Shown: positions 1 to 42,487 of the stretch, one piece after another
Layout of the letters: each line of letters begins with the position of its first letter
How positions within the stretch are numbered: position 1 is the stretch's first letter
Origin: Folioceros fuciformis
Taxonomy: Eukaryota
Assembly: GCA_049999805.1 (NCBI GenBank)
Contig: JBNGIO010006327.1
Location: 91,673 to 135,096 of the forward strand
Length of the DNA stretch: 43,424 nucleotides
Direction of reading: 5' to 3'
Translations under genes and position numbers: made by a program
The notes under the pieces: model-generated
The model's input: only the letters and a program-made list of their open reading frames with translations
Databases searched by the model: none
Told to the model about the DNA's origin: nothing

Positions 1-430
1 TTTTCATGTTGTCTCAGTTCTCTCACGAAACACACCATTTTCATGTTGTCTGGGTTTTCTCAAGAAACAGAAGAGATGCACAACATCGAAACTTCATCAA
101 ATGGAAACTGAACACATACACAACAGATACACAACATTCACCAAATCAAATTGAATCACAACATTCAAGAAACAAACCGTTTTCATGTTGTCTCACTTCA
201 CTCAAGAAACAGACTCTTTCCATGTTGTCTCACTTCACTCAAGAAACAAACCGTTTTCATGTTGTCTCACTTCACTCAAGAAATAGACTGTTTCCATGTT
301 GTCTCACTTCACTCAAGAAACAAACCGTTTTCATGTTGTCTTACTTCACTCAAGAAACAAACCGTTTTCATGTTGTCTCACTTCACTCAAGAAACAGACC
401 GTTTTCATGTTGTCTCACTTCACTTCAGAA
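1..430. repeat. 37-bp tandem repeat array (TTCACTCAAGAAACAAACCGTTTTCATGTTGTCTCAC)
   Basis: CAAGAAA recurs at 166, 203, 240, 277, 314, 351 and 388 (period 37), with a degenerate copy at 1-70. ORFs 6..554 and 151..513 are repeat-derived. Confidence 0.95.
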
Positions 431-479
431 ACAAAATGAAAACACGACATTCAATTTCTCAAATGGAATCAAAACATTC

Positions 480-770
480 GAGGAACATACCGTTTTCATA
501 TTGTCCCACTTAACTCAAGAAACTGAACAGATACACAACATTCAAGATACGTAACATTTTCATATTATCCCACTTAACTCAAGAAACAAAACAAATACAC
601 AACATTCAAGATATGTAACGTTTTCATGCTATCCCACTTAACTCAAGAAACAGAACAGATACACAAGATTCAAGAAACAAATTTTTTCATACTTTTCCAC
701 TTTACTCAAGAAATGGAATAGAAACATAACATTCAAGAGATAGAAAGTTTTCATACTGTCCCACTTTAAC
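480..770. repeat. ~64-bp tandem repeat related to the 37-bp unit
   Basis: TCCCACTTAACTCAAGAAAC recurs at 504, 568, 632 and ~696. The unit is the 37-mer core plus a CAGATACACAACATTCAAG segment. Confidence 0.85.
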
Positions 771-944
771 ATCTTTCACAAGTTGTAACTAGAGCTTTTA
801 GATGCAATTGTCTTGAACACTTGTAACATCTTCCACAAATCCAACTAGAGCCCTGTGATGCAATTGTCCAAACCACTTACAACGTCTTCCGCAAAGCCAA
901 TTGGAACCAGGTGCAATTATCTCGACCACTTTTGGAACATCTTT

Positions 945-1270
945 TGGAGATCCAACACCATTATAGTAACATTTTCTGCAAATCCAACACCACTACAATA
1001 ACAACTACTATAGATCCAACACCACTACGGTAACATCTTCTGTAGATCCAACACCACTACTGTAGATCCAACACCCCTACTATAGATCCAACACCACTAC
1101 GGTAACATCTTCTGTAGATCCAACACCACTACTATAGATCCAACACCACTACAATAACATCTTCAGTAGATCCAACACCACTACTGTAGATCCAACACCT
1201 CTACTGTAGATCCAACACCACTACAGTAACATCTTATGTAGATCCAACACCATTACAATAACATCTTCTA
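945..1270. repeat. Interspersed 20-bp and 32-bp tandem units (TAGATCCAACACCACTAC core)
   Basis: TAACATCTT markers at 1031, 1103, 1155, 1227 and 1259 are spaced 72/52/72/32, i.e. 32+20n. Confidence 0.9.
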
Positions 1271-1715
1271 CAGATCCAATAAGAGCCTTTGAATGCAATT
1301 GTCCAAAACACTCATAACATCTTCAACAGATCCAACAAGAGCCTTTGAACGCAATTGTCCAAAACACTCATAACATCTCCATTGTCCAAAACACTCATAG
1401 CATCTCCAACAGATCCAACACGAGCCTTTGAATGCAATTGTCCAAAATACTTGTAACATCTCCACCAAATCCAACTTGAGCCTTTGAGTGCAATTGTCCA
1501 AAACACTCATAACATCTCCAACAGATCCAACAAGAGCCTTTGAATGCAATTGTCCGAAACACTTGTAACATCTCCAATACATCCAACTAGAACCTTTGAA
1601 TGCAATTGTCCAAAACACTCATAACATCTACAACAGATCCAACAAGAGCCTTTGAATGCAATTGTCCAAAACACTCATAACATCTCCAACAAATCCAACA
1701 AGAGGCTTTGAATGT
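1260..1715. repeat. 56-bp tandem repeat array (AACATCTCCAACAGATCCAACAAGAGCCTTTGAATGCAATTGTCCAAAACACTCAT)
   Basis: AACATCT at 1511, 1567, 1623 and 1679 (period 56). Diverged copies lie at ~770-945 and a truncated unit near 1372-1400. Confidence 0.95.
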
Positions 1716-1767
1716 GGATGTCGAAATCAATATATAGATTCAAATCAACTTACATCTTAGCTAGCTA

Positions 1768-2165
1768 TGAGCACTCCCTGAGAAAGGTAAAAAGGGAAGT
1801 GCTCTTGGTATTTTCAACTGGCCGATATGAAGCACATCCTGAGAAAGGCAAAAAGGGAAGTGCTCTTGGTATTTTCACCTTGCCAATATGAAGCACTTCC
1901 CGAGAAAGGCAAGAAAGGAAAGTGCTCCTCGTATTTGCATCTTGTTGATACAAAGCACCTCATGAGAAAGGCAAAAAGGAAAGTGCTTCTTGTATTTTCA
2001 TCTTGCCGATAAGAAGCACCTCCTGAGAAAGGCAGGCAAAAAGGAAAGTGCTTCTTGTATTTTCATCTTGCCGATAAGAAGCACCTCCTGAGAAAGGCAA
2101 AAAGGAAAGTGCAAGGCAAAAAGGAAAGTGCTCCTGATATTTTTAGCTTGCCGGTAATAAGTGTG
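1768..2165. repeat. ~61-bp tandem repeat array with an internal inverted repeat in each unit
   Basis: GAGAAAGG at 1780, 1841, 1902, 1964, 2025 and 2090. Each unit carries AAGTGCT...AGCAC arms. Confidence 0.9.
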
Positions 2166-2285
2166 TCCATAAAATATGAATCCACATGTCCTGTTAATAA
2201 TGAGCTTGAAGACAGTTGAAGATTCTTTCGACATTTGATTGCTTGATGTCGAGTGTACTTACACAATCATAGAGAACAAAGATAT

Positions 2286-2385
2286 NNNNNNNNNNNNNNN
2301 NNNNNNNNNNNNNNNNNNNNNNNNNNNNNNNNNNNNNNNNNNNNNNNNNNNNNNNNNNNNNNNNNNNNNNNNNNNNNNNNNNNNN
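2286..2385. other. Assembly gap (100 N) with duplicated flanks
   Basis: TGATGTCGAGTGTACTTACACAATCATAGAGAACAAAGATAT occurs immediately before and after the gap, which suggests overlapping contig ends. Confidence 0.95.
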
Positions 2386-2527
2386 TGATGTCGAGTGTAC
2401 TTACACAATCATAGAGAACAAAGATATAGAAACTCAACTGATGTCCTATGCTTCACTTCAAGGATACAGTCTCTCGCTTTCTGCAAATGACACCCCTTTC
2501 ATGGTTCAGGATTCAAGGTTGGAATCA

Positions 2528-2702
2528 AAGTTAGAACAAACAATAAGTTCAAAGTTAGAACAAACAATAAGTTAATAGGTACTGAGCGAGTACCTACTAG
2601 AAAGAGCAAAGCATGTTTCTTCGTCGGATACATACCTCGGAAAGAGCAAAGCATTTTGGTTTATCTGATACATACCTAGAAAGAGCAAAGCATTTTCATT
2701 TA
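2528..2702. repeat. Short tandem duplications (2x24 bp; 3x~39 bp)
   Basis: AAAGTTAGAACAAACAATAAGTT occurs twice (2528-2573). GAAAGAGCAAAGCAT occurs three times (~2600, 2640, 2679). Confidence 0.85.
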
Positions 2703-2830
2703 TCGCGCCTTCCTGGGAGGACACTCCTTGGAAACTCCTTGACCAGGAAGACCCAGGGTTAATGAGACGTTCAGAAAATCGCATGATTCGTGCATAAGAA
2801 TCCCTGCATGTTGGCAGCACCCTGTTATTG

Positions 2831-5800
2831 TCATGTTACTAGGGTCCGTGTCATGGTAATCAAGATTGCAAGTGCAGGCCTCTCACTCTTACCGGTTCGA
2901 GGGGAATCAACCGCTACTGCCGGTGGACATAGTGATGGACCAACTGCAAGTTGTGGGCTCCGTGGCCCAAGAAGATCAATACCGAAGCTAGCTGGTGGCC
3001 CAAGAAGATCAATACCAATGCTAGCTGGAGGAGGCAATGACGGAATCTCCCGCTTCCTAGCCTTGGGTGCCAGTGGTCTGAATGCACCCACTACCGAAGA
3101 GCTGGGGTAACTCTGGATCCCATGGTGTTGGGGGATATTTTCGCCTAGCCGTGTGGCCCTTTTCCTCAAGGGTCGTACGGGAGTATTTGCGACGGGTACA
3201 GGCCCGGCCGCAATATTTGTTGCTCTCACTACCGGGACCATAGCCGATCCACCTACTATGGGAATTTGATGCGTGGATCCTGTTCTAGAAGTAGGAGGGA
3301 TGTTGACACCCACCGAATAGCTTCCAGGTCCTCGTCCAGCCATTGCTCCAGCTTGAAACACTGTACCTTCGAGAATGCCTACCTCCCCATTTGTCACAGT
3401 CGGAATTGTAACCGGATTCGAAAGTAAGCACTGTGCTTCTGATGGAGCAGGAGTGACATGCAGGCCTGGCATCTGAACCGCTGGACTGAAGATCATACTC
3501 TGCTGGGGAACAGCAAACGATTTGTTCCACAGCGAGGCGTCATCAACGCTGTTTGCCTGCGCAGAACCATATGCCATACATACATGTGTATCAGATGGCG
3601 TGATTCACTCGTGTTAGAATGCACCTGGCCATGGTTATAACCTAGTCTGCCGAGATATGACTATAACTCACTTTCTGGAGGAAGAGAACTCCTTGAAATA
3701 ACTCGCCGTTGATGTCTGTGGACACCAGATAGCCATGGTCAAATACTCCTACTACGCGTGCTTGTACCGTAACGCCACCCTGCGGAGGAAGACAGTGCAT
3801 CTCGTCACACAAGAGCCAGGCCATCACCAACCCCGGGACATCCGCAATCTCCCACATCTGTTCAGGAACGTACTGATTGAATTACCGTGACAGGCCGAAT
3901 TTGCAGATGATCGCCCTGGAAATGATCCACGTTAGACTGGAAAGCGTGGTTGGTATGTACGCCGTTCGTAGTTGATTGATCCTGTCCATCTGTGGCCGTT
4001 GGCAGAGTAATCCCACCCAGGGCTGGAAGTGGTGCTACAATTGTTTGAACCTGTTGGTTCGGATGACCGTTGAGTGGAAGTGACGGATGGCTACTCAGTG
4101 TACACCCGTCTTGAATGTAGGTGGCTGAGTCCCGTATCATCGATCCCCTTTGGATTGTTCCTGATGCCTCTTGAACTCTTCCCTCCAAAGCCTGCAATGA
4201 CTGAGCGGCACTGTTTGCCTCTGGGAAAAAGATGTTCCGAGGCTGGTGGATGGAGGAATCCACAGAGCAGGGTCTCCAGATTCCTGTTTTCATGTCTACT
4301 TCCGTATGCGCTTTCTCACTTTCCGACATGACTTCTGCGGCAAGTCTGGACTTGGTCACATCAAGAGCACGCCTAGCCTTTGCCATGATGTTGCTGGTGC
4401 TCCTGCGTTCATTGGTAAATTGATAATCTGAGGACAATTGAAGACGTTCAAGTTAGACTTGCATTCCACTCATTCTGTGGAGAAATCTCTACTGGGCTCG
4501 CAATTACTGATCCATCTAGACAGTAACAAAGGTCGGGCAAATCTCCATCCCCACGTTCTTATCTCCTCCGTGGCCTTACCTTCTTGAAGGCCGAATATCC
4601 CTGGTGTGATGTTACTCTCTTCAGATAGGCTTCGTTTTCTGCTGCCAACTGAGGGGACGCCCAAGGGCTGGAAACCTATTGACGCTTGGGATACTTGGAT
4701 TTCAATTGCCGCTTGCAGGGCTGCGACTTCTTGAGATGTTCGCACAATGGTAACATCGGTACCATGAAGAGCTTCATGCGGCTGCGTATTCCGGCAGTTC
4801 ACGAGGAGAATCTCAGCAGAAGGGTGAGAATTCAGGCATTGTAGGGGATTTCCTGAATTGAAAGGCAGACTCTTGTAGACGTGGTCATTTTCTTTTAAGA
4901 ACAACTTCGGATGAGCACTTACAGTTGGCACAGTCTGTGAGGATGAAGCCGGCGAATGGTGAGCTCCCGCAGCATTTTCCTCCAGTTCCGAAGGACGGCA
5001 TCCAGGACATTCGCAGCTGTAAAAGTTTCCTGAGGACAAACTGGCGGCCGCTTGAAGTGTCTCCCCTGACCCAAGGGTGTCCAGAATGAGAACCTCGCCC
5101 AGTGTGGTGTTGGAACATCTGTTTCACACAGGCTATGAGCACAGGTCTGTCTCACGCAGAGCCCTGAACAATGCCCCACAGGTGGAGGCAGGTTTTGCAA
5201 CTGCATACAAATTGAGTAAAAGTGGATTCGAGGACGCAGTTGTCGATGTCAGTGCTCCCCAACTAGTTGGAGAAAAAGCCTAGGGGGAGCATACTTACCC
5301 TCCATAGAAGAGGACGGGGCCATGCTCTTCCACGAACGTTGTCGAGTGTAAGAACCTTCCTCGTGGAACTGCGCCAGTCGCGTCAATTTGCACCCACACC
5401 GCAAACCGTGTGTGCAAAACCCATAAATCGTTAAAGCGGGTGCCTCCTCGCCCGATACCTCCAAATATGTAGATCTGATTTTCAGGGCCGTATCAAATTC
5501 TGTGCACCTGAGAAGAAAAATCAAAATTCTTGGTGTATTGTCAAAAACTTCACCTTGTCATCCTTGGTGAAGCAGGAGTGACCAGCTCGGGGTGGAGGAT
5601 GCGTATCTCCCACAATGCTGAACTGTGAGAAGAAACGAGTGCCCAGAATGTGGTCAGACTGTTTATATACGTGATGCTGGTGTTGCCCATCATCGTGAAA
5701 GCACAAGCTTGTGAAATGTTGAGACGGAATACCTTAGACCACTCGTACGTGTTGACGTTCAACACATTCACTTCAGTCACAAACTGATTATCCCCAGCGT

Positions 5801-6737
5801 CTCCCCCAACAATGAAGAGACGGTCTCCCACCATCACTGCTGAATGTGCCCTCCGTGGCTTTGGCAATGGCCCGGACACGGCTGGGCAGGACCATTTCCA
5901 TGACTTGAGATTGAGAACATACAAATCCTGCAAACAAGGCTGCGCGAGCCCGCCTCTTCCCCCAAAAACAAGCAGAAGGGAATTGTGCTTATCCAACGTT
6001 CCACTATGACAATCTCTCGCGAGCGGAAAGTCCCCTGGATTGGAGACGAATGTCATCAGCTTGAGAGCGAGAACTCAGTCCCTTTTTTCTGACACCATAG
6101 ACAAAGTAATTGAGCTCCAAGACAAGGAAACTGCATTGTGTTGCACAGCAAACCTAATCCTCGGACGGACCCACAGCAAGTACCTGAAAGTCGTGGTTTG
6201 GTCCATACGAGTGTCTTGAGGTCGAGGTACAGGAGGTCATTCGTCTTCTCCAGGGACCCATTGGTCTTGACCACGGTCCCTCCAAATATGAACACGGTAC
6301 TCTCAATCAGGAAAGCTGAGTGACCTTCGCGCTGCCCTGGCTCCTCCCCCGTCGTCACAAGAACCGTAGACCTTTTTGTCTCCAGGTTGATACACAGCAC
6401 ATCACCCAGCTTGTTACCACCGGAACAACCCTGTCGCACACAAATCGTCTCAATAGCCAGACAATGCCAGGATGCGCAAATGTAAGAGAAGATGAGCTCA
6501 CAAACTGGGAACTGAGGCAAGCAAAATCGGGAAACACGATAACCACAAATGCTTGCGCACCCCGTGAACGTAGAGGCAGTTGTTCTCATACACAGCTACG
6601 TGCCCCATCCGCGTGGATGGGACCACCAGCTCTGGGTCGATCCATGTGAAGCGCTCAGCCTCCAGAATATGCTTCCTCAGGCTCTTTTCTCTCCTCTCGT
6701 TCCAAGCAGTTGGCCGCCAAGTCGGTAGAGTGGCCAT
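2831..6737 (-). CDS. Multi-exon kelch-repeat (galactose oxidase/kelch beta-propeller) protein with a long low-complexity C-terminal region
   Basis: Spliced kelch blades: PSTRMGHVAV..LYVHGG, PGQREGHSA..VFIFGG, PLARDCHS..LLVFGG, PKPRRAHSAV..LFIVGG, PPPRAGHSC..IYIFGG, PRGRFLHST..LFYGG|CSNTTLGEVLILD. The motif VVGVFDHGYLVSTDINGELFQGVLF (~3680-3760) resembles the C-terminal module of plant At1g74150/At1g18610-type kelch proteins. GT-AG introns fit in phase. The start (ATG 6737), the 3' exons and the stop are less certain. Confidence 0.85.
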
Positions 6738-9283
6738 CACAGGCGCAAGGGATCACTGAGCCAAACGCGGAGCCGCCCAAGCCCAGAGAGCCAGAGTGCC
6801 AGGGTGCGGCGGGATTTGCGTACTCCAGCCTGCATCCAAATGCCCTCCACGAGAGGAGCGTCAACACCAAAAGCACAGCAGGGAGGAAGAGGCGCAGGAC
6901 TCAAAGCGTCGACAAGCTTCCCCGTGCGATTGCACGTTGTTTGGGATCGTCAGCCCCGAGCCCGAGCGCGAGCCCAAGCGGAAGCGCGTACGAACCAGGA
7001 AGAGAGGCGCGCGTCCGAATTTCGCAAGCTTGCGACGCGCGCACAGCACAGTCAGGGGGGTACCTCGGCAGAGAGCGCTGCAGCGGCCGGAATGGAATTC
7101 GCGTCCGGGCAGCTCCACCACGCACTGGGCCCGATTTCTGAGCAGGCGGGTGGGGGAGCGGGGGGGAGTAGGTGAGGGCGCGCAGGCGGGCGAGGTGGAC
7201 AGGTCTGAGTAATCTGCGGCGGCAGGACGACACGATTCGGACTCCGAAGCGGATCGCGAAGAGCGATCGCGTAAACGGGATCGTGCCAATATCTGCAGCC
7301 ACATTGGCGCCCACAATTAGAGGGCCAGGCAGGAGTATATTTTGCATGCTGCCCTGCCGCGCAGCTCTCCAACAGCTGCAGCTGCGCGCACTGAGCCACA
7401 GTTCCAAAGGTGATAGCGACGGCCGCGGGAAGTGAGCGTGACGGCGACGCCAGCAACACGGACAGCGATGTCATCAGCAGACCGGCTCACAAATGGTTTC
7501 CTGCCCCTCGCTCGTCCTTCAACTCCGGGTTAACAGCCTGGTCACATTCGCGGGCTCTTTGTCCTTGCCGAGCCAGCCATCCGCCATTATCACAATAGCG
7601 ACATCCTTGAGGGTCGCCTGCTGCGATTGCAGGCTCCATGCATACATCGCCTTCGCAGGCCTGTAATCTCATCAAAGCTGTTTGGTAAAAGTTGTTTTCT
7701 GGCGTCAAATCAGGTCTGCTACGGCCCTCTACAAGGATGCATTACATATCTGGTCTGAAGCTTCGGAAGCAAGTGTGTTTGTACCTACGGGAGCTGAGTC
7801 ACACATATGCACTGAGAGCCGTCTCCATAGCTCCCCGCCTTGTCCTTGTCTCATGCCATGTCACCGGAGCGTGTGCATCGGAAACAACGGAGAGATGAGC
7901 AGGAGGCGTGTCAAACATGGGAAGCTAGGGCTCCAGGAACTCGCCGTCCCACGTTGTCGTGACATAGAAGATGTCCATGCTGGGGTTGGTGAACCAACGT
8001 CCATGAGCCTCAGAGTGTGGCAGTCCACAGCGACAGCGGTGTTTGCAGGATGTGGCGCTGCCAGGACGAGAACTACAAGCCCTACCTAGCCTGCCCTAAC
8101 CTGGCCGAGCCGAGGGAGTACGTCCTTCGTCCTCGAAGCTCCACCTCGTGCCGCGTGAGCTGTTCGTGTCAAGATCCACAGGATGCTGCGGATGCAAAGC
8201 TACGCGTATGCGTATCGCAAATGCAAAGGCTAATGTGTCTCCCCTCATGCGCTGGCTGTCATCCAGGCAGGCAAAGATAGGCAGGACAGTCAGAGCAGAG
8301 GCTTGTGTATTGAGGTTTCTTGTGAGCAACCACCACCATGACAAACGCACGAATTGCAGACCGGTGCGTTTTGACTCGGACAGCAGCAAGCCTTCCGTGT
8401 CAGACGTATGTGTGTAGCTAGCTAGCAAGCAAGCTATGTACACACAGCTCTCAAGGTCAATTGTAACCTCCTCCTCCCCTCATCCCCTAACCAATTTTGT
8501 TCCTGATGAGGAACCTCGCAAAGTGGCTGCAAGTCTGATGTAGCCTGGCCACCTACCAGTGTGAAAAGGTGTGACTTGGGCTTGCCTTGGATGTATTCAG
8601 AGGGTCATGAGAGCGTTTCCGTCTGGCAAAGGCAGGCGTTGTGAGCTCACGGGCGAGGCTATGCTACCTGTGTTGAGCTCCCGTCACATTCGCCTTTTCA
8701 GCTCACAATTGTGCTACTCCTCTGGACAGCTGTCGCTGTTGTAGCCTGGTGCGACTCTAACGGTACGCTGCAGCCTGTCTGAAGGAGATGGGGGGAAATC
8801 AGGACTGATGTGCCACACAACAGGGGTTGCAAGACTCGCTGGCATCATGCTGCTGAAAGCGCAACAACAGTGACATCCCGAGGCAGACGCTCGAGACAAC
8901 AGCAGGCGCTCCATCACACAGCCACAGGCCGCAGTGCCTCGACACCCCACCCCATACATACTCCCTTACCTGAGACGGCAGCTTTCTGTAGCCTGAAAAA
9001 CGTCGTCATCCTCATTCGTGCTATTCCTTCGTATCCTATCACCTGATCACACTACTAATCCAAGCCCAACTTTTGCTAAACTTTAAAAATCTTATAAATT
9101 TAAAAGTCCATTTCACTTCACTTTAGCGTTCTCATAGGATATAAACAAAGTAACTACAAAGTTCTACATGTTTGCTCATCAAAGTCTATGGAAGAAGAAG
9201 ACATGCATGCACACATACATTCATAATCCTTACAAGTTCACAATCACATTCATGGGTATTTTACTGAGTGCATGTGTAATCCA

Positions 9284-9736
9284 TTATTCTTCATTCCAAG
9301 GACTCAAGGTTTCTTGGGGCAATGGGGAGTCAGAGTACCGGATGAAGCAATCTTTGGCATAGAGTTCAGCAGTCTTCTTCAAAGGGCAGAATGTTTGATC
9401 AATCCATATACTAAGTGTAAGAATACAAACTGCACAATCTTCTCTACTTGTCATAGTGAGTGATGGTTGAGAACATGAACCGCGGTAATGAATCTCTCCA
9501 TAGGACTCCTCCCGTGGTAAATTACGTGCCGTTCCCAATACAGGGAATCCTTGAGGGATCATATCTTGCAATCTTTGTTTCATTAGTTTATGCACTTGTT
9601 CATATACACTATTTGGTGCAAAGTTACTTTCCCCGCATTTCCAATATGTAATAGTTGTATCAGAAGTAATTGGTTGCGTCATGCATTTAGTTATAAGTAA
9701 GCACATACTGAAACCAAAGAAGAATTTAAAAGACAT
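9284..9736 (-). CDS. Secreted single-domain DUF26 / ginkbilobin-2-like cysteine-rich protein (150 aa, intronless)
   Basis: Hydrophobic N-terminal signal-like segment. Six mature cysteines follow the Gnk2 pattern (WKC, GSC-x12-C-x2-C, FCP, CFIRYS). Confidence 0.85.
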   Translation of the reverse strand: MSFKFFFGFSMCLLITKCMTQPITSDTTITYWKCGESNFAPNSVYEQVHKLMKQRLQDMIPQGFPVLGTARNLPREESYGEIHYRGSCSQPSLTMTSREDCAVCILTLSIWIDQTFCPLKKTAELYAKDCFIRYSDSPLPQETLSPWNEE

Positions 9737-10031
9737 GATGTATAGAAATATGAAGTGAAATACTATCTTATCCTTCTTAAAGTCGTTGATAATGTTCTAT
9801 ATGCTGCCTCCTTGGTGAAGATTTTATAAAATGCGGGGTTGCTCAACTAACTCGTAGGATGTGTAAACTGACACAAGAATCGGATAGTTTAGAATTTTAA
9901 ATACAAAACAGGTGAAAGGTTTTTTGTTTGGATGGTGCTGGTCCTTCGACGAGTCTTCCAATAGGAAGATTGCCAATGGCTTCTTGAGGTGGCTGTTGCC
10001 ATCCACGTGAAAGATGGAAGGCCTGAGTCCC

Positions 10032-13000
10032 CTAAAGCGCCGGCACTTCTTGCACGCGAACAACCTCTTCCTCTGAGGTCGAAGGTCGTCGTGTTCTCAG
10101 TTTGCACCACAAACCGGTCTTTGTGTGCAGAGTGGCGCCAGTCACCAGCTCTACGTCCTCGGGTGAGCCTCTCAGCTGGACGTCATACTTTTGCAACAGC
10201 ATTGCCAATCCCACCGTAGATTCCATCAGGGCAAACTGGTCCCCGACGCACTTGCGAGGTCCCCCTCCGAACGGCAGAAACGCAAAGTCTGACATTATCT
10301 GCACCCACAGTGGGTTATCAAGACCCGTGCTGGCATTCATCACGCCGAAACCTTTTGTGTTAGGAGCTTAGCTCCTTGAGTTACCTCGTTTGGGTACAAC
10401 GAGCCTGCAGCTCTGGTCGGATCAAAGCCATCCCACCCAGAAATCCCTTCGCCCGTCCTTGTCTCTTCAAATCTCTCGGGTTCAAACTTTTCTGGATTAT
10501 TCCAGAAAAATGGAGACCGGTGCAAATTGTATACCTGCCGTAGGAACAGATGGTTTCAGAGTGGGGTCAGAATGATCCTGGATGGGTGCCCCGTAGAGGA
10601 GTTTAGGAAACTCACCGAAATGAAGATGTCAACTCCTCGAGGAATGACATAACCACTTGGATCCCCTCGATGCCCACCTGTGGAGGATGGTGAGTAGTTA
10701 GTTGAGACAGTCTCTGAGGGCGCATGGCGTCGTTCTGAACGGCGCGGAACTACCAGGTAGCTTGTCGGGCTGCAGAGACCGTCGGATGAGAAGTGGTGGT
10801 TGCGGATACAGCCGAAGTGATTCAGCAACAATGAGTCGGATGTACCTGCCCAGCATCCACACATCCACGACATTCGATAAGCAAATTTCAACCTGACACC
10901 AGGAATGGCAATCCTGAGCATGGAGCAAACACCTCAGAAGTCTGCTATCCAAGCTCTGTGCACAGACCAAACTGGAATAGATTCTTTGATCAGGTTTGGA
11001 AATACATATCAGTTGATGCCATACGGCCAACCCCTACTAGAGACAAGTGGTCATTGTACACATCTATATGGCCGAAGGAATCAGTTCCTGGAGGACATTC
11101 GAGAACGGCTTCCAAGGTTCGGTGATGGATCCCTTCCGAGTCAATGGCATACCCACCCCTATGAGCATGACCTGCTAAACATGCTACAACACACTTATAT
11201 TTATGGATTACCACCATAACCTCGTCGTAGTTCCAGAGCAATGAAACTGGGGAAGCAGATGCAGGGTTCAAGGGCAGGTGGCATAGGATAATGACCTTCT
11301 GGCTCAGGGAAGTGGATTCCTGCAACACGGTATCTAGCCACTTCAGTTGATTAGCGCTCACACCCCCATTGAACTTCACAAACCGTCGCTCATTTCCACT
11401 AAGCCCTTCTGGACTGTTTTTCTCCTCATTTGGGTTCCTACTGCTAAGCACGGAATTGGCCAGTTCTGTATGTGGATGATCTTCTGGCCAACCAAGGGCG
11501 CTGATGTCATAACCATCCAAAACAACAAGCCGGAACGAGCTTGTAGGACAAAACTCATAGTAAGAGCGCCCATCCTCGAACACTGGAATGCTGAGGATAC
11601 TGTTAAGCTCAGCTCTCGGCAAGTTGTAGAAACAATGATTTCCCAAGATATGATAAACCCGGCCTTTGAACCTGTCAAACGCAGCCACTACCCTGGAAAC
11701 AGCTCCATGGGCATCTTCCTTGGGACAAAAGCCATCCACAATATCCCCAAAGTGAACAACAAAACCAAGATTTCCTTTCTGATTCCATTGCACCACAGCC
11801 CTTTCCAAGGCTTCAAGACTGTGGCGGTAATAGCGAGGGACCCCAGCAAAAGAGAAGCCATCCGGAATGTCAGCATACTGAACATCTGTTATCACCGCAA
11901 ACGAGAAAACCGGTAGATCGTTGTTACGGGCAACCATTTCTTCGTGGGTGGGTGAAGCGATTCCAAAGCCATCCATCACCCTCCGTTTGTGGGTTCTCTC
12001 CTTCATCTTTCTTAGTAAGGTATAAATAAAATTAGGCTTGGGTGAGGCATGATTCCTCTGGCCGGGATCTGATGGATGACTTCTACAACATACCTGGGGG
12101 ACATCACATGCTGCTGACCAGCAATACTGAACATGCGGGTCAATATGAGTACTTGTTAGGACCTTCGCGTATCTGGAAATCATTTCTCCAAAATACAACA
12201 AAGATTCTTGTAGGGTGTGTGCGATTCTGAAGAGCTGCAATCTCTCTCCAAGTAAGGACTGGTTATCATCCATCTCAACCTGACACCTGAGACCCAGAAT
12301 CTCACAACCCTAACATCAGAACCTAATATCGACTTTCCTTGCGTGAACAATCAAGCAAAGCACGCATACGCCTTTCAAACTGACAATTGCAGCTTATGAA
12401 TGTGCTGCCAATGGGCATCGTGATGGTCAAAAAGTCGAGCACACTGTCCTAGTCTTGGGTATCCAGATGCTTTGAGGCCATGCCTTGCCACTAGGTAGTA
12501 CACACAAAATATACCATAGATCCAGCGTATCAGGCAAGAGGTAGGAAGGATAACTTACTGCAACTTCTTAAGATCTTGAAGAGTCGGCCTCCTCCCACCG
12601 AGAACTGAATCAATCTCCTTTTGCGCTTTGGCTACCTTGTCAGGATTCTGCAAAGTGACAGAAAAGTCAGCAGTCACTCAGAATAACATGGAAATTAAGA
12701 GCGACATCAAGAGAGACAGACAGAGAGAGAGCGCCAACGAGGAAGGGAGAGACTCACCTGAGCTAACATGTATGTAGCCCAAGTGAGCATAGCCGCAGTT
12801 GTTTCGTGGCCCGCAATGAGCATTGTCATAAGATCATCTCGCAGCTGCAATGCACCCAGCATCTCTTCTCTAATTGGACAACGACCATTGCCAACAACAG
12901 TCTACGGGCCGATTCATCTGACATGCTACCAGCACCTTATAAGATACTCCAGGACAAAAGCATCACCCTAAAATCCTCGTCTCCAGATATCTAGGAGATA

Positions 13001-14841
13001 ACCAACCTGTTTGTCATCTGCATCTTCCCCCCTCATATCGACCAAGAATCGCAACAAGCTAGCATCCTTGGGAATACCGTTACAAAAAATTAGACCACGT
13101 GAAAACACTAATCTCAAGAACATGATCAGGTCGAAGTAGTGAGATACATACTTTGACCTTGGAATAATCCCGTTGCTGTAACCCTTCAATGTCTAGCTCC
13201 TGTACGCAGATCCAGTTATAAGCTCAAGCATGGGAGACCATGTCTAGACGCTGGAGAACTTACCAAACGTTAGCTGAACTTTGAGGGAGAAGGCCAGGAA
13301 TTGGTAGTAACGAGCCTGTCTGCTGTCTCTTGCTCTCTGAATTAAGCTGTCGAGACAATCATTGATAACTTTTAAGTCATCGTGAAACTTCCGTTGGCGA
13401 GGTACAATCCATCGTGATAATGGAAACTTCCAGTATGGGATGTAAAACGTTGATCTGTGTTCCGCCTCCGACAGGGTCCCATACACAGCCTGGTCACCAC
13501 AATCAACAGCTCCATCAAACTATAGAATCGACATGCTTCACTTGGAAAATTAGAGAAGTGTGCGCCAGCCATTCTGATGTAACTGCAGGGCAGAAATAGG
13601 CAGAGGAACAGCTTATGATCAGTACCGCAATAACAGGAGATTCTTGAGTAACGGATCCAAAGTCGTAGTTGAAGACGCTTAGTCCAATGATGTCCAGTGC
13701 GAGGCTTGAAAACTCTGACTCCATCTCTACTTCGACATAGTCTTTATCGTTGCTCTTAGCCTCAGTTAACAGTTTCTCAAGCTTTTGTACTGTCCTCTCT
13801 GCACAGTCATTAAAGACTTGCACCATTGCCTCCAAGTATGCAGTATGGAATCCTGGCACGATAGCTGGTCACATGAACAGACACAATTGAGTACTGTGAA
13901 AGTGAACCAGAAAAGACTAAACGAACAGGGGAAGACTTGACGATAGTTGGGCGGGCTCCGACACGAAAGGGAGCATGCAGGTACCTCTTCTGCGTACTTT
14001 CCATGTCTCTAGATCAGCAGGGATAAGCCCTTTTCCCATGATAGGTTCGAGAATGTCAGCAAGGACTCCCTGAGAAGCAAAGACTACAGTATCATGAAGG
14101 AGCCGTGATGTGCCTTGCCCGGAACTCACCCGGTGATTGTGTGAAACACACCATGGACAGTAAAAGTGATGTGCACCTTGTCATAACCAAATGCATTTTC
14201 ACGCAGAATATGCCGAGCGACAATAGGATCTGACACAACCACGAATGCCTTGGGTCCGAAAGCTAGCTTGTATACTGGACCGTGCTGCAGACATTCTAAA
14301 GTCAGGTCTGGACAACTGAGAATCCTGAAACTCCATAACGAACCCCGCACCTCTCAGCCAAGGCTTACTTGGATGAACCAGTCATAAAGGGCATAAAACA
14401 GAGGCCTGTCGAACAAGTCGGACACCGCCCCCTCAGCAATGGGCATCCCTCCCACGCTTCCCCCGCTCAGTAGATTTGTCAGCAAATTGCTTGCATTGTC
14501 AAAAAAAGATCTTTCCGCCTTAGGAGTTTTGGGTTCCTCAGTCCTGACACTGCAACACGCATGGTCGTCATGAATGAATTAAAACTGGCCGTAAACATTT
14601 CAGCAGCCAAACCTCAAAGCAATTTCGGTTACCAGAAAATCTTCCCAGGTCGCCGAGGCCCATGCTTCACTGTCCCACAAAACAGTCCACCGGTCCCAGC
14701 TCCTGAGTTCCCTGCAAAGACAGATGCACCGCACTCTTTCCTCCATCCCACGTACTCAGACAGCCCGATCCTCTGAGTCGAGCAATATCGAAACGATGAA
14801 ACAGACGGAGACGACACCCGGGGAGTAACCAAGAGATTCAT
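10032..14841 (-). CDS. CYP97B: Cytochrome P450 CYP97B (carotenoid hydroxylase family, plastid-targeted), 14 exons
   Basis: Exons (minus strand): 14841-14633, 14549-14369, 14284-14177, 14069-13985, 13864-13626, 13489-13316, 13199-13152, 13066-13007, 12844-12758, 12647-12559, 10845-10754, 10677-10616, 10534-10385, 10298-10032. Motifs: [22 protein letters not shown] (I-helix), ESLR (ExxR), PERF and [14 protein letters not shown] (heme Cys). Closely resembles Arabidopsis CYP97B3. Confidence 0.96.
10990..12006 (-). CDS. ADPRM: Manganese-dependent ADP-ribose/CDP-alcohol diphosphatase (calcineurin-like metallophosphoesterase), nested in CYP97B intron 10
   Basis: Uninterrupted ORF with all metal-binding motifs: DVQYAD, RYY, GDIVDG, GNHC, FNGG, CHLP, GHAH and LEC. 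Strong resemblance to plant ADPRM (At4g24730-type). The start is uncertain: in-frame ATGs at 12273, 12006 and 11976. Confidence 0.93.
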
Positions 14842-15570
14842 CTCAACAGTTCGGCCTCCAAAGTTCCACAACCGGGGAAACGTGACGGGGTAGCTGTCAA
14901 GGGCCCGCTCGACACGCTACTCGACGATTTCGGATAAGGCTAGGAAGATATCCTAACTGTTACTATATCACGGGGTGTATTTCCTGTTACGGGTTATCTG
15001 ATCCCCATTCATCCGTCCCGTCCAGGTTCCCTCCACGATTCAACTCAGAAGAACACAGATAGGAACTCTATATGCACAGACTGCTTTTGTTGCAAACTGG
15101 CAATCCAAACCTGCCACCCAGTGTTCAGCGTACTAGGTATGAAATTTCCTATCACCAGTGAAAAGTATATGCAATAGGATCCCTCGCCTTGCCAGTCAGG
15201 AAACCAAAGTTTTTGTTCCGAGAGATCTGGGTCAGCTGAATCTCTGTACCTGTCAAACTACGTATGTTTAAACTCACAATCCTTCCTTAGCTATGGCCTT
15301 GGCGGACAACTATAGATTTCTTCTCCTGCTCCAGAAGGAGAAGAGACTTTGATTGAAGTGCACTCTGATGACGAATAGCTGAATCTCAGTGCCATTCACA
15401 CTACTGTACATATGTTGCTGTTTCCAGGAGGAGAAGAGACTCTGAGTGCACTCTGAGGACGAATACGGAAATTTGTGCTCTGTAATGAACCTACCTACCT
15501 GTGTGCGTACACACAGACTCTGCTAATGAGGGCGAGCATAAACAAACTGCATTTGCATCGTGATCAGGTT

Positions 15571-18800: not shown

Positions 18801-21800
18801 CAGCAGTAGTACCTCTGTGAGCCTGTTGGCTCAGGAGAGTCAGACATTGCAGGTTCCCCCGCCAGCAAAAGAGGGTTTTACCTCTCCGTTTCCTCTGTTC
18901 GGCCATGCTGGTCCACGTCTTCAGGGACCGAGCACTGTCAAGCCACCTTCATCTTCAGTGTCAACTTTGTCTTCTAGAAGCCAACCAGAACAAACCCCTG
19001 CCACCTTGAGTGCACTGAACTCGGGCAAGAATGTGGACGTAGTTTTAAGGCCTTCAGCATTTCAGAGGAGTTCCAAGAAGCACCAGATCGAGCCTCAGAT
19101 ACCTGGTGTCTCAGAAATGGAAATAGAATTCATCAAAGAGCTTGAGAAGGCAAGCCAGTTACTCTCTCTGGCCAATTTGCAGAAGGAAAATTGTTGATAT
19201 GCCTGTGAAAGATGGTTTCTGCTGCTGTTAGGAAAGCTCCAGTCACTGTTTCTTACGCATGCTCTTTTGACTCCATCCAGGTCAGGCAAATGGCAGATCA
19301 AACAGATGCTTTGATGTCGTATCTGCAAAGTAACCTTGTGAGCGGGAAGGGTGTTCCTCCTGCAGCTTATGCAGAGATATCACTAGAAGAGTTGGAGAAA
19401 GGGATTTCCAATCTCTCAGAGAACTCCAAGCGGCTAAAGGTGACTGTAGAAACGCATCTAGTTTACGTGTGTGGTCATGTGGTTCCTCTCTCTTCCCCGT
19501 TTTGTCTACACCAAAAATGCAGTAAATGCATTTTTGCTTAGTGAGGTTATATAACGTACTGCTGTCCTTGTTTGATGTGCATTTAAGCAACCTCTGATCT
19601 ATTGTTGCACGCAGAAAATCATTGATGAACAGCAACTAGAAGTCGAAGAACTTGCTGATGATACCATGAAAGGTGTGCAACCTAAACCGTTGATATCCAG
19701 CTGATCTTTGCAGATTGACAGAAGAGCAGGTGCTTGTCTACGACTTGAATTCTCGTTGATGATGACGAGCTGACTGTTAATGTCGTGCGGGCTCTACAGT
19801 GGATACTTGGAGAATTCATGCCCAAAGTTTAGCTGAGCAGGCAGCCGACACTTGGCATTGGGACTTCTGGATGCATCAAAATCTGCACCCTGAGCTAGAA
19901 ACAAGACGTAATGCTGTAGTTGAAGCAGATCAGGTTGTTGCCATGGTTGGTTGCTGAGTTTTTTGGCTACAATATTGGATATGGGGCTAGAAGCTGAAAC
20001 CAGTAGTTATTTCTTTTGCAGGCACTGAAGCAACAAATTGATGATCTGGAAAGACACCTACAGAGCTTGGAATTCAACCATACGCAGCATTCTAGGGGCT
20101 CTTTTAGGAAGCAATTCACAGTAAACAAGCAAAGTCCAACGTAAGTATTTATTCTGTCGGTTCTGTTGTTGTACCTGATTTACCCGGATTGCCGTTTTCT
20201 TACCCTTGTGATGGTCTCCTGTTGGGGAAACAGGCAGTTGCAAGCTGTCCAGAATCTTTATAGCACAGTGAATGCTCAAATGACTGTTGCTGAGCAACTC
20301 GTCCAGTGTCTAAGCCAACAAATGAGAGTGCTGAACATATCTTCCACTCCATCAAGAATCATACCTGTCCAGCCGGCTGCAGCCGGAATTCTAAAGTCGT
20401 TAGGTGTGTCAGTTGAGGAAGACGACGCTCTTCAAAGCCCTAGTTCGAAGCCGAGGTCAAACTTTTCTCAGGACTCTGGTGAATCTGCACTTGCAACTCC
20501 TCGGCAGCATCTGCCAATTGAATCTGATCCTGCACAGCAAGAGAGCACAAGGAGGAGACGGGACTCAATGGATATGGTAGGTCAGTTTGTAAGTTTTACA
20601 GAGTTGTGGTTTTAACACAGGGAGATATGACATTATCTGAGATTGTGACACTGGCAAGTACAGGCCTGGGTCGGAGCAGGAGCAGCCAAAACCACTATTA
20701 AGAGAAGTTCCAGAGTTGAACGAAAAACTTTGCCAGGAGTGCACCAGGAATCTCTACGATACGTGCGGGGGATGAAGGCAAGTGTGGACGGTTCACCACC
20801 TGCAACCACTGGTAATCAGCCCAAGCAAAACAAGGCTGTGCCAGGTTCTAGAGTCTCTTCATTGTCAGTGTCACCCCAGCCCGTTGGAGGAGAGCTTCGG
20901 AAGCCTTCCGGTATTTCTAATTAACAGTTGCCGGCCCGTTTCGTCTCTTCTTGTGGTTTTTTTTTTCTATCCATGTGGTAGTTTGCGTAGACCTGTCCAT
21001 GTCCTTCGTCCTTGGCAGACATGATGCTGATGAGAGGTTTTTGGCAGCCGCTGTTGACAGCACCGCAAACTTCATTCGTCCACCAGCCTCTGGTAAACCG
21101 GGATCAAATGATCAGTCTAAAGCGAGTGTGTTCCAATGGGCAAGTGCAGTTTCATCTCAATTTCCAAGCTCAACTCTTGCAGGTCCTTCATTGTCCTTTA
21201 CATCATCTTCATCTGCCACGGCTCATCGATCATCTGAAACTGGAACAGCTTCCAGTAATGAAAGTGGAACCACAGGACTCTTTGGGACGACGAGCAGATT
21301 TTCTATGTCAACGAAGTCTGAGCAGACAGACGCGTCACCAGCTATAGCACCATTTGATATTCACAGGTCTGTCTCAGGCCCCATGGTGGCTGGGACTTCA
21401 ACCTCAACTAGTGTGACTGCTGATTCTGAGAGAAGAAAAACTGGGTATCGACTAAGTTTTTCAGTCTCTAGTCCCAACGATGGCATTACAGCTGCACCAC
21501 CTCAGAGAGAATGGTCGGTACCTACTTTCTCCACAACGGCAAGCTCTCTCCCAAGTAAAGATCCAGTGAATACTACTGGGGGCAGTACATCTATCTCTAG
21601 AGAACAACTGCCTGGAATGTCTCCATTTTCCCCTGTGCCCATCATTTCTTTGCCAGGTAATCGTGCAAGCTCTGGTTCTGCTCATCAATCTGCTGGTCTC
21701 GGGGTTATGGCTGCAAATTCTGAGGCATCAGTTTCGCCCACTCCCTCCCCAGCTGTAGAGGAGCTCTCACTTCCACCAGCACCTGAAAAGGCAACACCAA

Positions 21801-23330
21801 TGGAGCCCAAGGTGCCTCCATCATTGGTCAGGGAAGTTGCTTGGGTGCCACCGGCACCCAAGGACCCCCCTCGTCCGTCATCTCCTGCAGTCGTGGCAGC
21901 TGTCTCACGGACTCCGAGTTTTGGCTCCCTTCCAGCCTCTGTTGGTGGTGCACCGTCTACTACTTCAGCATCTACAGCGATTGCTGCCGTCTCACTGACT
22001 CCGAGCTTGGGTTCCCTTCCAGCCTCTGTTGCTGGTGCATCGACAACTACTTCAGCATCTACAGCGACAGCTGCTGCTTCACTGACTCCAAGCTTCGGTT
22101 CCCTTCCAGCCTCTATTGCTGGTGCATCGTCAACTACTTCAACATCTACAGCTGTTGCTGCTGCTTCACTGACTCCAACCTTTGGCTCTCTTTCGCCATC
22201 TGTTACTAATCCAATGTCAACTTCTGTAGTATCTTCAGGATTTGCCCCGTCTTTTACATCTCGAACAGCCTCTAGCTCAACGCCTCCTGCATTGTTTGGA
22301 CAACCAGCTAGCACACAAGTTGCAGCTGCACCACAGTTTGGTTTTTCCAGTCCCAGTCCAGCTGCCAATCCCTCAATTTTGTCCTTTCCGAGTTTGCCTC
22401 AGGCTCTGGCTGCTGATAGTGATGGGGAGGTCATGGAAGAGGAAGTGTTGTCCACCCCATCAGCTGGATTTGGAGCGTTTGGTGGATTTGGTGGACTTGC
22501 TCTGGGAACCCCAGCACCACCAGCGGAAAAAGTGAATCCTTTTGGTGTTGAATCAAGCCCTGGATTTGGAATGAGTGTACCCAGTGGTGGAATGAGTGTC
22601 CCAGGTGGGCAACTATTCCGTCCTGCTTCGTTCAGTCTTCCTCCTGCTCAGTCTTCTCCTCAAAGCAGTGCAAGTCCTTTTGGAAGTGGATTCCAACCTG
22701 CTTCTGGTACTGCATTTGGGCAAGCGTCTTCAAGCGCTGGGAGTGGAGGTGGGGGCTTTGGCTCTGCTACTGCGTTTGGCCAACCAGCTCAAGTTGGCCA
22801 GGGGCAGCATGCTCTTGGGAGTGCCCTTGGGACCTTTGGACAAACTAGGCAATTGGGTTCTGGTTTTGGAGGATCTGGGTTTGGTTCTGTTGGGGCTCCT
22901 GGCTTTGCAGGTGCAGCTTCTGGTAGTGGCTTCGCATCAAGCCCTGGCGTAGGCTTTGCTGGTGCAGCTTCTGGAGGAGGATTTGCTGCGGCAGCATCTG
23001 GAGGAGGGTTTGCTGCTGCAGCTGCTGGCGGTGGCTTCTCTGGTGCTGCAGCAGGCAGTGGATTTGCCAGTGCGCTTTCAGGTTTAAATACCTTCAGATA
23101 CTGAGTAGAAGTACTAGATGCCATGCTTCAACAAATTGACGACCTTCTATAACATTCCCTAATTCTCCAGTGGGTTCTTGGTAGTCTGATACAGTGTTTC
23201 CTGTTTTACAGGGGGCGGTGGCTTCGGTGCTTCGGGGTCAGGAGGTTTCACTGGGTTTGGAGGTTTTGGAGGTTCTCCTGGGTTTGGTGCTGCTGCTCAG
23301 ACACCCCTTTTCACTCAAATGAGGAAATAG
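15866..23330 (+). CDS. NUP214: Nuclear pore complex protein NUP214 (N-terminal beta-propeller, coiled coil, Ser/Pro-rich region, FG repeats)
   Basis: N-terminal FFRRIG...PSHGLAVS...FFAHPG; NKRSVDDHIVLLGW; PVLLCMTLEGK; LYSTVNAQMTVAEQL; RRRRDSMD; GQLFRPASF; ALGSALGTFGQTRQLG; GGGFAAAA repeats; C-terminal LFTQMRK* at 23330. These are characteristic of plant NUP214. Many GT-AG introns. Confidence 0.93.
21905..22205 (+). repeat. 87-bp (29-aa) coding tandem repeat, ~3.5 copies, within NUP214
   Basis: Units start at 21905, 21992, 22079 and 22166 and encode S[RL]TP[ST][FL]GSLPASVxGAxxTTSxSTAxAAx. Confidence 0.92.
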
Positions 23331-27016: not shown

Positions 27017-28655
27017 ATGGGGGACAAAGGGAGCTCTCAGGGGCCGACGCCATCTGAACAGAAATCGCCAGCTGCTCAGCCCCGGAGAAGAGTTTTGAGC
27101 CGATTCTTTGGTCTCTTTTCGAGGCGTAGCAACAGTGATTTTGAGAAGAAGTTACAGCATTTGTCTCAGGAGGAAAGGGCAGTTCACGAACGTCTCAAGA
27201 GGCGGGCCCGGACATGGGCAAAGTTGGCCAGGGGTCTTCTGGTCTATTCCATCGTCATTGAGGTGGGTATAGGTGATTCCGTTTCCGCAGGAGGAACGTC
27301 AATTTCTCTACAATGGCAAAGGCTAACATGAAATGGCAGATATTGCTTCTAGGTTTTGCAATATGGACAACACGGTCTCCGGACCTGCCGTGGAAACGTC
27401 GGGGAATGAGGGTGTTACCTAGTTTTGCACTACCGGTCCTTGTTTCCCTGGTTTATTCTGGGTTGGCAAGATATTACAGAATGCGTAAGTCTCACTTCCT
27501 CTGAAATTTTGGACAATCTATGATCCAGATACTGCCTGCATCTGGGTTTCATTTCTGAATCTGTTTTTGTCTCTGCAGGTGAGCGCAAGGATCAGAATAC
27601 GTTGGAGCGACTGAAAGCTGAGCGGCAAGCAAAGATTGATGAGTTGAAAGAAAAGACAAACTATTACGCTTTACAACAACTCATACAGGTGTGCTTATCG
27701 AATGACTTGTCAATTTCTGCTCTTTCCACACTGAAAATTGCTAGTCTGGCACTGGGGAAGCTATGTTTGCTTATCTCAACCGATCCCTTGCTTTGGTTGT
27801 CAGCAATATGATTCCGATCCAGCAGCCAAGGCAGCAGCAGCAACTATTTTAGCTGCCAAGATTGGGGTAGAATCCGGTTTGAAGCTTGCGTTTCAACCTC
27901 ATGAGGTAGAAGCTCAACGAAATGGGAACCAATCTCCCAGAGTAGGCAAGAGCCATGAGGCGGGAAGTGCAGATCCTTCTGGCTTGAGGAGGAGAAGGGG
28001 TCCGAGACTTGACCAAGCGGAGCCAGCCAGTCAATTGGCGCTGCCGGATAGGTATGCAGGAAGTTATCCACATGAAGCAAGCTATGATGAAGGCTCCTCG
28101 AATTCGTTTCTGGATGATGGAGAGATGCAGCTGAACAAAGAACGTGGAAGCGGAGGAGGTTGGATGGCTCGTTTTGCAGCAATGCTTGTCGGGGAAGATC
28201 CCAGTCAGTGCTACGCTCTGATTTGCAAGAACTGCTTTATGCACAATGGTAATGGACTTGACTATAAGGCAACCCAATGCCTGTGTCTTTCCTGTTACAT
28301 GCAATTTAATTGTACGGATTTATTCCCGATTCTTTATTCAGGCTCATGTTGGGGGCATGTTTGCTGTCTCTCAGGTCTTGCAAAGAAGGAAGATTTCCCG
28401 TACATTACTTACTACTGCCCTCACTGTCATGCCTTGAACGGACGTCGGCCAACAAAAGACGTTACTCCAGAAGCGGGTGGCATGGGGGACGGACCAAGTG
28501 TATCTCCACGCGAAACATCTCTTAGGCCTACCCAAAGCCTTCAGAGTGCAACTCCGACTTCACCAAGTGCACTATCCCGGGCATTGAAGGAAGCTGCCAG
28601 CACTTTGGATTCACAGGCTGGCAGTCTCGCTGAAGACGAAGATGACCAGGACTGA
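27017..28655 (+). CDS. LNP: Lunapark-family ER junction protein (two TM helices plus zinc finger)
   Basis: DFEKKLQHLSQEE; two hydrophobic segments; LERLKAERQAKIDELKEKTNYY..QQLIQ.YD.D; GGWMARFAAMLVGEDPSQCYALICKNCFMHNG|LAKKEDFPYITYYCPHCHALN. GT-AG introns are in phase. Confidence 0.95.
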
Positions 28656-41745: not shown

Positions 41746-42487
41746 GAAAGAATCCATGATCTTTGCTTTTCACTAAATTCTTATAGATAATACAAATCTT
41801 TGACTTTGGTCAATTAATGAAGATTCATTAAGAATTCAAAAGTCTTTCTTTAGTAAATTAATGAGTACTGTGACGACGGAGTTAATGAAAGTTGTTTGCA
41901 TCATGCTTCTGAAAAAGTCATGGAGCGCAAGCCAAAGAAGATGCCATGGTTCTACCTGGTGGTGGTAAGGGAGGAGGTGCCAATACATCAAGTAAATAAT
42001 ATTAAAAAAATGAAAAGATCTCAAAGAAGCTGTTATTGGACAAGAAAGTGGCGGGCCCATATAATGTACATGGTGGTTAGTTGTACCGCCTGCCTTGTGC
42101 TGAGAAGCTAGAATAAGGCTGGGCTGACAAAGTGAGGAATATGGGAGCTCATATTGTTCACCATGAGATTTCGTCGTCCAATTTCTGAGTTGATAGAAAG
42201 ATTCTATGGCCCCGACTTTCGTTTTTTTTGTGTCCCACAATCTTTTGCGTGAAGGAGCAGGAGGCGGCCCACCGGTCTGAATCGAGATTTTGAGGAGAAA
42301 AGGGGGTTGAAATAGTCGAGCTCGAACCAGAGACGAGGCATGTGCTCCCCCCATTGAAGGCTAGTGACAGCCGGTACTCGTGAGGCACATGGGGAGGACG
42401 GAGCACAGACAGGTGTCGGTGGCCCAGCTCCGAATATTTATTAATTACAAAATGTGGAAATGTTGTGGCACCGGGAATATGACAGGG

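Follow-up and report, generated by a model that had tools for sequence, protein, structure and literature searches.

How can a cell make two proteins from the same strand of the same DNA if the coding sequence of one lies entirely within an intron of the other? Same-strand intronic protein genes force two transcription units onto shared DNA, and such an arrangement is present in the window, by which we mean the whole 43,424-nt stretch of Folioceros fuciformis DNA that was analysed. An earlier note on this DNA, made from the letters alone, had reported that a gene for ADPRM (an ADP-ribose/CDP-alcohol hydrolase) lies intact inside an intron of CYP97B, a carotenoid P450, and had suggested that the choice between splicing and intronic polyadenylation could switch between the two genes. 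We asked whether the nested gene is real, whether it is transcribed, and whether a switch is the best account of it.

The coding span of CYP97B (10032..14841, minus strand) runs from an ATG at 14841 to a stop codon that ends at 10032, and has 14 exons that encode 616 amino acids. Eleven of the 13 introns were placed by spliced joints in contigs from a sequencing run that we call X3 (described below), with the splice-site letters read from the sequence; introns 1 and 2 were set by the gaps between pieces of X3 contigs together with a reading of the sequence. The spliced model is 80% identical to CYP97B from Marchantia paleacea and from Riccia over 535-539 residues. Its last exon contains the heme-binding cysteine motif ([10 protein letters not shown]) and matches proteins named cytochrome P450 97B2 or 97B3, chloroplastic, which carry PF00067, and this places the gene in CYP97B.

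One intron of this gene stands apart. Exon 10 (12559..12647, minus strand) ends in ...LKKLQ with a split codon (CA, then G), and exon 11 (10754..10845, minus strand) begins [11 protein letters not shown]. Between them lies intron 10 (10846..12558, minus strand), which is 1713 nt long and of the GT..AG type (GTAAGT..GGGCAG), versus 76-162 nt for the remaining 12 introns. The donor at 12558, the acceptor at 10846 and the length of 1713 nt are those that the earlier note had given, and an X3 contig is spliced across the intron; the claim that the other introns are short also agrees with our measurements.

Most of intron 10 is taken up by an uninterrupted open reading frame with the same orientation as CYP97B (10990..12006 including the stop codon, minus strand). 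It encodes 338 amino acids from the Met at 12006, or 328 if a second Met at 11976 is used. The end of its stop codon (10990) is 144 nt from the host acceptor (10846), where about 145 nt had been claimed. A Pfam search identified the protein as Metallophos (PF00149; 4.1e-11, 44.1 bits versus a cut-off of 21.5, residues 35-283), and residues 31-331 match chain A of PDB 2nxf (2nxf_A), a "putative dimetal phosphatase" (1.6e-65). At the D-x-Q, GD-x-x-D, GNH, H, and GH-x-H positions, the protein is identical to 2nxf_A, and these residues are among the invariant columns discussed below; we take them to be the metal-binding motifs of the ADPRM / calcineurin-like metallophosphoesterase family. The earlier description of an intact same-strand ADPRM frame with metallophosphoesterase motifs is thus borne out.

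Among 2445 candidates, 531 are homologues of the nested protein. Those with names are plant manganese-dependent ADP-ribose/CDP-alcohol diphosphatases with 58-68% identity, and the closest relative is P0002 (335 residues, 75% identity). From this homology, the nested frame encodes a putative Mn-dependent ADP-ribose/CDP-alcohol diphosphatase, and we refer to it as ADPRM. The entire ADPRM coding sequence lies within one CYP97B intron, and that intron is spliced out (see below), so ADPRM inside CYP97B intron 10 is a real nested gene pair.

We also note some other features of the window. The neighbouring genes include Kelch-repeat exons at 5553-6595 on the minus strand (PF24681 at 6.3e-26 and 1e-16) as well as, at 27735-28652 on the plus strand, a zinc ribbon of the lunapark type (PF10058 at 1.2e-15). 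A 727-codon open frame on the plus strand (20921-23101) has no Pfam match. S, T, A and G are abundant in it, it has many FG and GFG repeats near its end, and it resembles an FG-repeat protein of the nucleoporin type. Three parts of the window are AT-rich (1-3000, 9001-10000, and 40001-42000; GC of 0.36-0.40 versus about 0.48-0.55 elsewhere in the window), and the second of these is directly beyond the 3' end of CYP97B. Within 9500-15500, Rfam gave no match at E ≤ 0.1.

To see what is transcribed, we relied on X3. This run has the same species label as the best-matching DNA runs but comes from another sample and another study, and its 7 contigs all reach a likeness of at least 99%. Its label of "RNA?" is a guess, and we treated it as cDNA on the ground of its spliced joints. 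All 11 of the X3 joints listed are CYP97B introns, including the 1713-nt intron 10. Ten of these 11 joints read CT..AC on the plus strand, and the other one, for intron 6, fits GC..AG if the cut is moved by 1. (Intron 6, at 13200-13315 on the minus strand, has a GC..AG boundary instead of GT..AG.) Since the joints are all at host introns, X3 behaves as cDNA and intron 10 is truly removed. The spliced joint for intron 10 is 10842 to 12556 (cut +3), with a depth of 55.7.

X3 also contains a contig of 1770 nt (10816-12585, depth 31.6) that has no differences from the window; it holds all of intron 10 and extends 30 and 27 nt into the exons on either side. This is the shape that is expected from a 31-mer graph when spliced and unspliced forms coexist. 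Carry-over of genomic DNA does not account for this coverage, as X3 has a depth of zero at the sampled positions in six other CYP97B introns (2, 5, 7, 8, 9, and 13; the sampled rows left out introns 1, 3, 4, 11, and 12). The only other host intron that was found unspliced in X3 is intron 6, in a contig that covers 13174-13344 (depth 34.9 versus 57.8 for the spliced form). Because intron 6 is also retained, the coverage of intron 10 may be due partly or wholly to intron retention. X3 depths are whole-contig means, and we did not rank the two genes by them; the contigs carry neither RNA ends nor strand. We also set aside the sum of the depths at the branch between exons 10 and 11 (71.3, 55.7, 67.7, and 31.6), as depths along CYP97B are not additive.

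The ADPRM sequence is transcribed, then, and some of the RNA spans both borders of intron 10. Because an X3 contig continues from intron 10 into exon 11, at least some of this RNA does not end before the acceptor.

We consider it likely that CYP97B intron 10 received a functional single-exon ADPRM by insertion before at least four related species diverged, that purifying selection has kept it there, and that both genes are co-expressed. The host still excises the enlarged intron normally, giving a full CYP97B mRNA. Most of the intron 10 RNA would be ADPRM transcript that begins within the intron itself, somewhere in the stretch of about 550 nt that precedes the frame. RNA that crosses both borders of the intron could stem from host pre-mRNA, from retention of the intron, or from ADPRM transcription that continues into exon 11, and the 3' end of ADPRM may lie between its stop and the acceptor, within those 144 nt, or farther downstream. 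The transcription units of CYP97B and ADPRM would thus overlap, with both genes co-expressed. If the two are coupled at all, transcriptional interference rather than a proven switch would be the route.

The earlier note had argued that every CYP97B pre-mRNA contains the ADPRM coding sequence and also its poly(A) signal. The first part stands, given the geometry of the locus, but the second part is not supported, as a signal of this kind did not turn up. AATAAA is absent from the minus strand within 9500-12000, which is a weak guide and uninformative here, as the host 3' end is without AATAAA as well. In the switch that was suggested, host transcripts would either splice intron 10 and yield CYP97B or end at an ADPRM poly(A) site, and each product would be made at the expense of the other, as for the mouse genes H13 and Mcts2. 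We think that this is unlikely. The two genes do share a strand, the ADPRM stop is close to the acceptor, and the host frame meets a TAA stop immediately at the donor if it is read past exon 10 into intron 10. RNA in X3 is continuous from exon 10 into intron 10, and H13/Mcts2 offers a precedent, as described in the accessible part of that report (PMC13309782). However, no poly(A) site is seen in intron 10, and the X3 contig that passes the acceptor into exon 11 implies that some RNA is not ended within the intron. Spliced and intron-covering forms are also found in one library. Furthermore, in a truncated host transcript, ADPRM would be about 550 nt behind a long upstream open reading frame and would probably be poorly placed for translation.

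Another way to express ADPRM is suggested by the sequence just upstream of it. The ADPRM frame stays open for 101 codons 5' of the Met (12007..12309, minus strand), and a Met within this extension (12271-12273) would give a protein of 427 amino acids. This stretch was open in only 12 of 5000 shuffles, and it is weakly coding-like, with a codon log-odds of -0.003 in frame versus -0.21 and -0.24 out of frame. The ADPRMs of moss, Marchantia, and Chara have an N-terminal extension of 70-130 residues, which the ADPRM in the window lacks unless the upstream open stretch is coding; we found no likeness between the 12007-12309 stretch and the extensions of the moss, liverwort (Marchantia), and Chara proteins. 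ADPRM might have no promoter of its own and might be made from host transcripts, either because intron 10 is retained or because an acceptor near 12287 links exon 10 in frame to this open stretch and so fuses ADPRM to the N-terminus of CYP97B. Splicing of exon 10 to an AG at 12288-12287 would be in frame (which would happen by chance one time in three), and RNA bridges the border between exon 10 and intron 10. We nevertheless find this account quite doubtful. The X3 contig across 10816-12585 is unbroken, so there is no abundant junction inside intron 10, and a joint from exon 10 to about 12287 is not among the X3 joints listed. None of 11 longer ADPRM-containing proteins in the database has a P450 domain, which is weak evidence against CYP97B-ADPRM fusions. 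The closest relative, P0002, has 335 amino acids and no such extension.

A wider form of these ideas, drawn by analogy, is that the locus could be a conserved plant counterpart of H13/Mcts2, in which ADPRM transcription or 3'-end formation governs whether CYP97B transcripts reach the heme-binding exons, or else that ADPRM could depend wholly on intron 10 retention. We give this a small but appreciable chance. If it is true, then regulation as a single unit would tie a plastid carotenoid hydroxylase to a nucleotide-sugar/CDP-alcohol hydrolase in several species.

Is ADPRM under constraint? Across 14 other streptophyte ADPRMs, 103 columns are invariant, and ADPRM has the shared residue at 101 of them. 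If each of the other rows is left out in turn and scored in the same way, that row loses 0-6 residues. In a quick maximum-likelihood tree, the end branch of ADPRM is 0.21, versus a median of 0.26. In the same tree, ADPRM pairs with P0002 (support of 99), and the pair belongs neither to the moss clade nor to the clade with the lycophyte and the seed plants; the tree gives no firm placement of the pair relative to Marchantia, fern, and Chara. Together with the similarity matches, this suggests that the DNA is from a non-seed land plant of a lineage that is missing from the named proteins. Given the invariant residues, the ordinary branch, and the open frame, ADPRM is without any sign of decay. 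As part of the same overall reading and with the same confidence, we think that ADPRM is probably maintained under purifying selection.

Three other organisms have the same arrangement. In organisms B, C, and D, single DNA contigs (3242, 14676, and 8085 nt) are colinear with the window at about 90% identity. The colinear region takes in exons 11-14, the ADPRM segment, the rest of intron 10, and upstream exons (10085-12432 and onward). Relative to the window, there are 237 substitutions in 2348 nt in B, 259 in 2401 nt in C, and 144 in 1769 nt in D, or 8-11% in the long pieces; the total for the window (organism A) against its relatives is 714 substitutions and 119 indels, of which 40 and 12, respectively, were listed singly. 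The least conserved part of intron 10 is a 67-nt segment (12433-12499), which is replaced by 68 unrelated letters in C and D and is an alignment gap in B. Organism D also has a separate contig of 333 nt (X12 record 2, depth 27) that contains only 68 nt of ADPRM (11528-11595), with 10 differences and unlike flanks. This may be a second ADPRM-like fragment or a paralogue.

These comparisons bear on the two remaining alternatives. The nested ADPRM might be a decaying passenger, with the RNA over it being merely a retained intron. Another CYP97B intron is retained at a similar depth, as mentioned above, and the short second ADPRM-like fragment in organism D (11528-11595) would also fit. But we consider a passenger to be very improbable, as the frame is intact, the protein has 101 of the 103 invariant residues and an ordinary branch length, and three relatives, about 10% diverged at the DNA level, keep the locus colinear. 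Finally, an assembly artefact that fused two unlinked loci, which the earlier note had named as a possible refutation, has nothing in its favour and would now need one error common to all four data sets; it can be dismissed as extremely improbable: an independent run from the same species has one contig over both borders of intron 10, and the DNA contigs from B, C, and D keep the identical gene order. Given these colinear contigs, the nesting is not a misassembly and is older than the split of the four organisms.

How widespread is the nesting? We scanned metagenome contigs with the ADPRM alignment and obtained 79 loci, which were moss-like, legume-like (one was identical to a Vigna protein), Brassicaceae-like, or of other kinds. 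At least 700 nt of flanking sequence was available on at least one side in 75 of the 79 loci and on both sides in 50 of them. CYP97B was not found beside ADPRM in any of the 79 loci (with 6 CYP97B queries at E ≤ 1e-3, only the window matched), and therefore the nesting is specific to the window's lineage. In three of the legume-like loci (L006, L013, and L015), there are two copies of ADPRM on one strand, 6-7 kb apart, which looks like tandem duplication.

The same loci indicate what an ordinary plant ADPRM gene looks like. Of the 79 loci, 58 have ADPRM as a single unbroken match that is 280 residues or longer. Thirty of these 58 are in loci of at least 10 kb, including the Vigna-identical, Brassicaceae-like, and moss-like contigs. 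Judging from these matches, a single-exon ADPRM coding sequence is the norm in plant loci.

How might ADPRM have entered the intron? It is bounded by two copies of a 16-nt direct repeat that are identical at 15 of 16 positions (family D3) and that are a candidate target-site duplication. The upstream copy is at 12272..12287 and the downstream copy, at 10885..10900, follows the ADPRM stop and precedes the host acceptor. A match of 15 of 16 was reached in none of 300 shuffles of the two flanks. The repeat looks like an insertion footprint or target-site duplication around a 1371-nt insert, and removing the repeat-bounded segment would leave an ancestral intron 10 of about 326 nt. Among the differences listed, organisms C and D share a 3-nt deletion at 10897 within the downstream copy. 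The upstream copy is abutted by the Met at 12271-12273.

A length of 16 nt is usual for the flanking repeats that arise in target-primed insertion. There is no remnant of a poly(A) tail, in that no A-run is found ahead of the downstream copy. We considered the intron-free state of ADPRM as proof of retroposition and rejected it, as 58 of the 79 plant loci are uninterrupted; with the intron-free state being the plant norm, a loss of introns relative to an intron-bearing parent is not indicated for ADPRM. Inverted repeats near the ADPRM frame are weak (75-86% over 14-22 nt), and there is no sign of a transposon with terminal inverted repeats. The insertion could have been either via RNA or via DNA.

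The earlier note knew of no description of this arrangement, and our search of open-access text agrees: among the matches listed, there was no paper on a nested arrangement of ADPRM or CYP97B. For nested genes in hornworts, only unrelated papers matched in open-access text, and no survey of plant nested genes was found there. No enzyme study of a plant ADPRM was found among the open-access matches listed, and those for Arabidopsis appear, from the portions of text available, to be omics or QTL studies.

The CYP97B/ADPRM pair is a well-supported structural curiosity and not a new mechanism. It has several assets: the genome is compact, with introns of about 100 nt, both genes are ancient as well as conserved, and the arrangement is present in at least four organisms. 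This makes it a clean natural case for the study of splicing across an embedded gene in plants and of transcriptional interference. It is also a warning for annotation, as gene finders may merge CYP97B and ADPRM or lose one of them.

Finally, we compare the pair to known systems. Like stand-alone plant ADPRM genes, the ADPRM in the window has full-length homology (58-75% identity), the common invariant residues, and an uninterrupted coding sequence, but unlike them, it sits inside a CYP97B intron. It resembles LINE-mediated retrogenes in having a single exon and in being bounded by a 16-nt direct repeat; it differs from them in that it has no poly(A) remnant and its lack of introns is not diagnostic.

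Animals provide well-described cases of nested genes and of their interference with the processing of host RNA. The case closest to CYP97B/ADPRM is that of the mouse nested gene Mcts2: its transcription promotes intronic polyadenylation of its host H13, and this case rests on 3'RACE and genetic ablation, according to the accessible part of the report (PMC13309782). As there, CYP97B/ADPRM has a small gene in an intron of its host that could affect host RNA processing. The mouse locus, as far as that part of the report goes, differs in having imprinting and CpG-island methylation, whereas CYP97B/ADPRM is known here from contigs without RNA ends. More generally, nested genes typically arise when short young duplicates insert into long introns, as stated in the accessible part of a second report (PMC5174743). 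In line with the nested genes of Drosophila and mammals, ADPRM is a short gene in an unusually long intron; in contrast to them, intron 10 is long only through the insert (about 326 nt without the repeat-bounded segment). And unlike the animal nested genes, the CYP97B/ADPRM pair belongs to a land plant whose introns are very short, and it is conserved across species.
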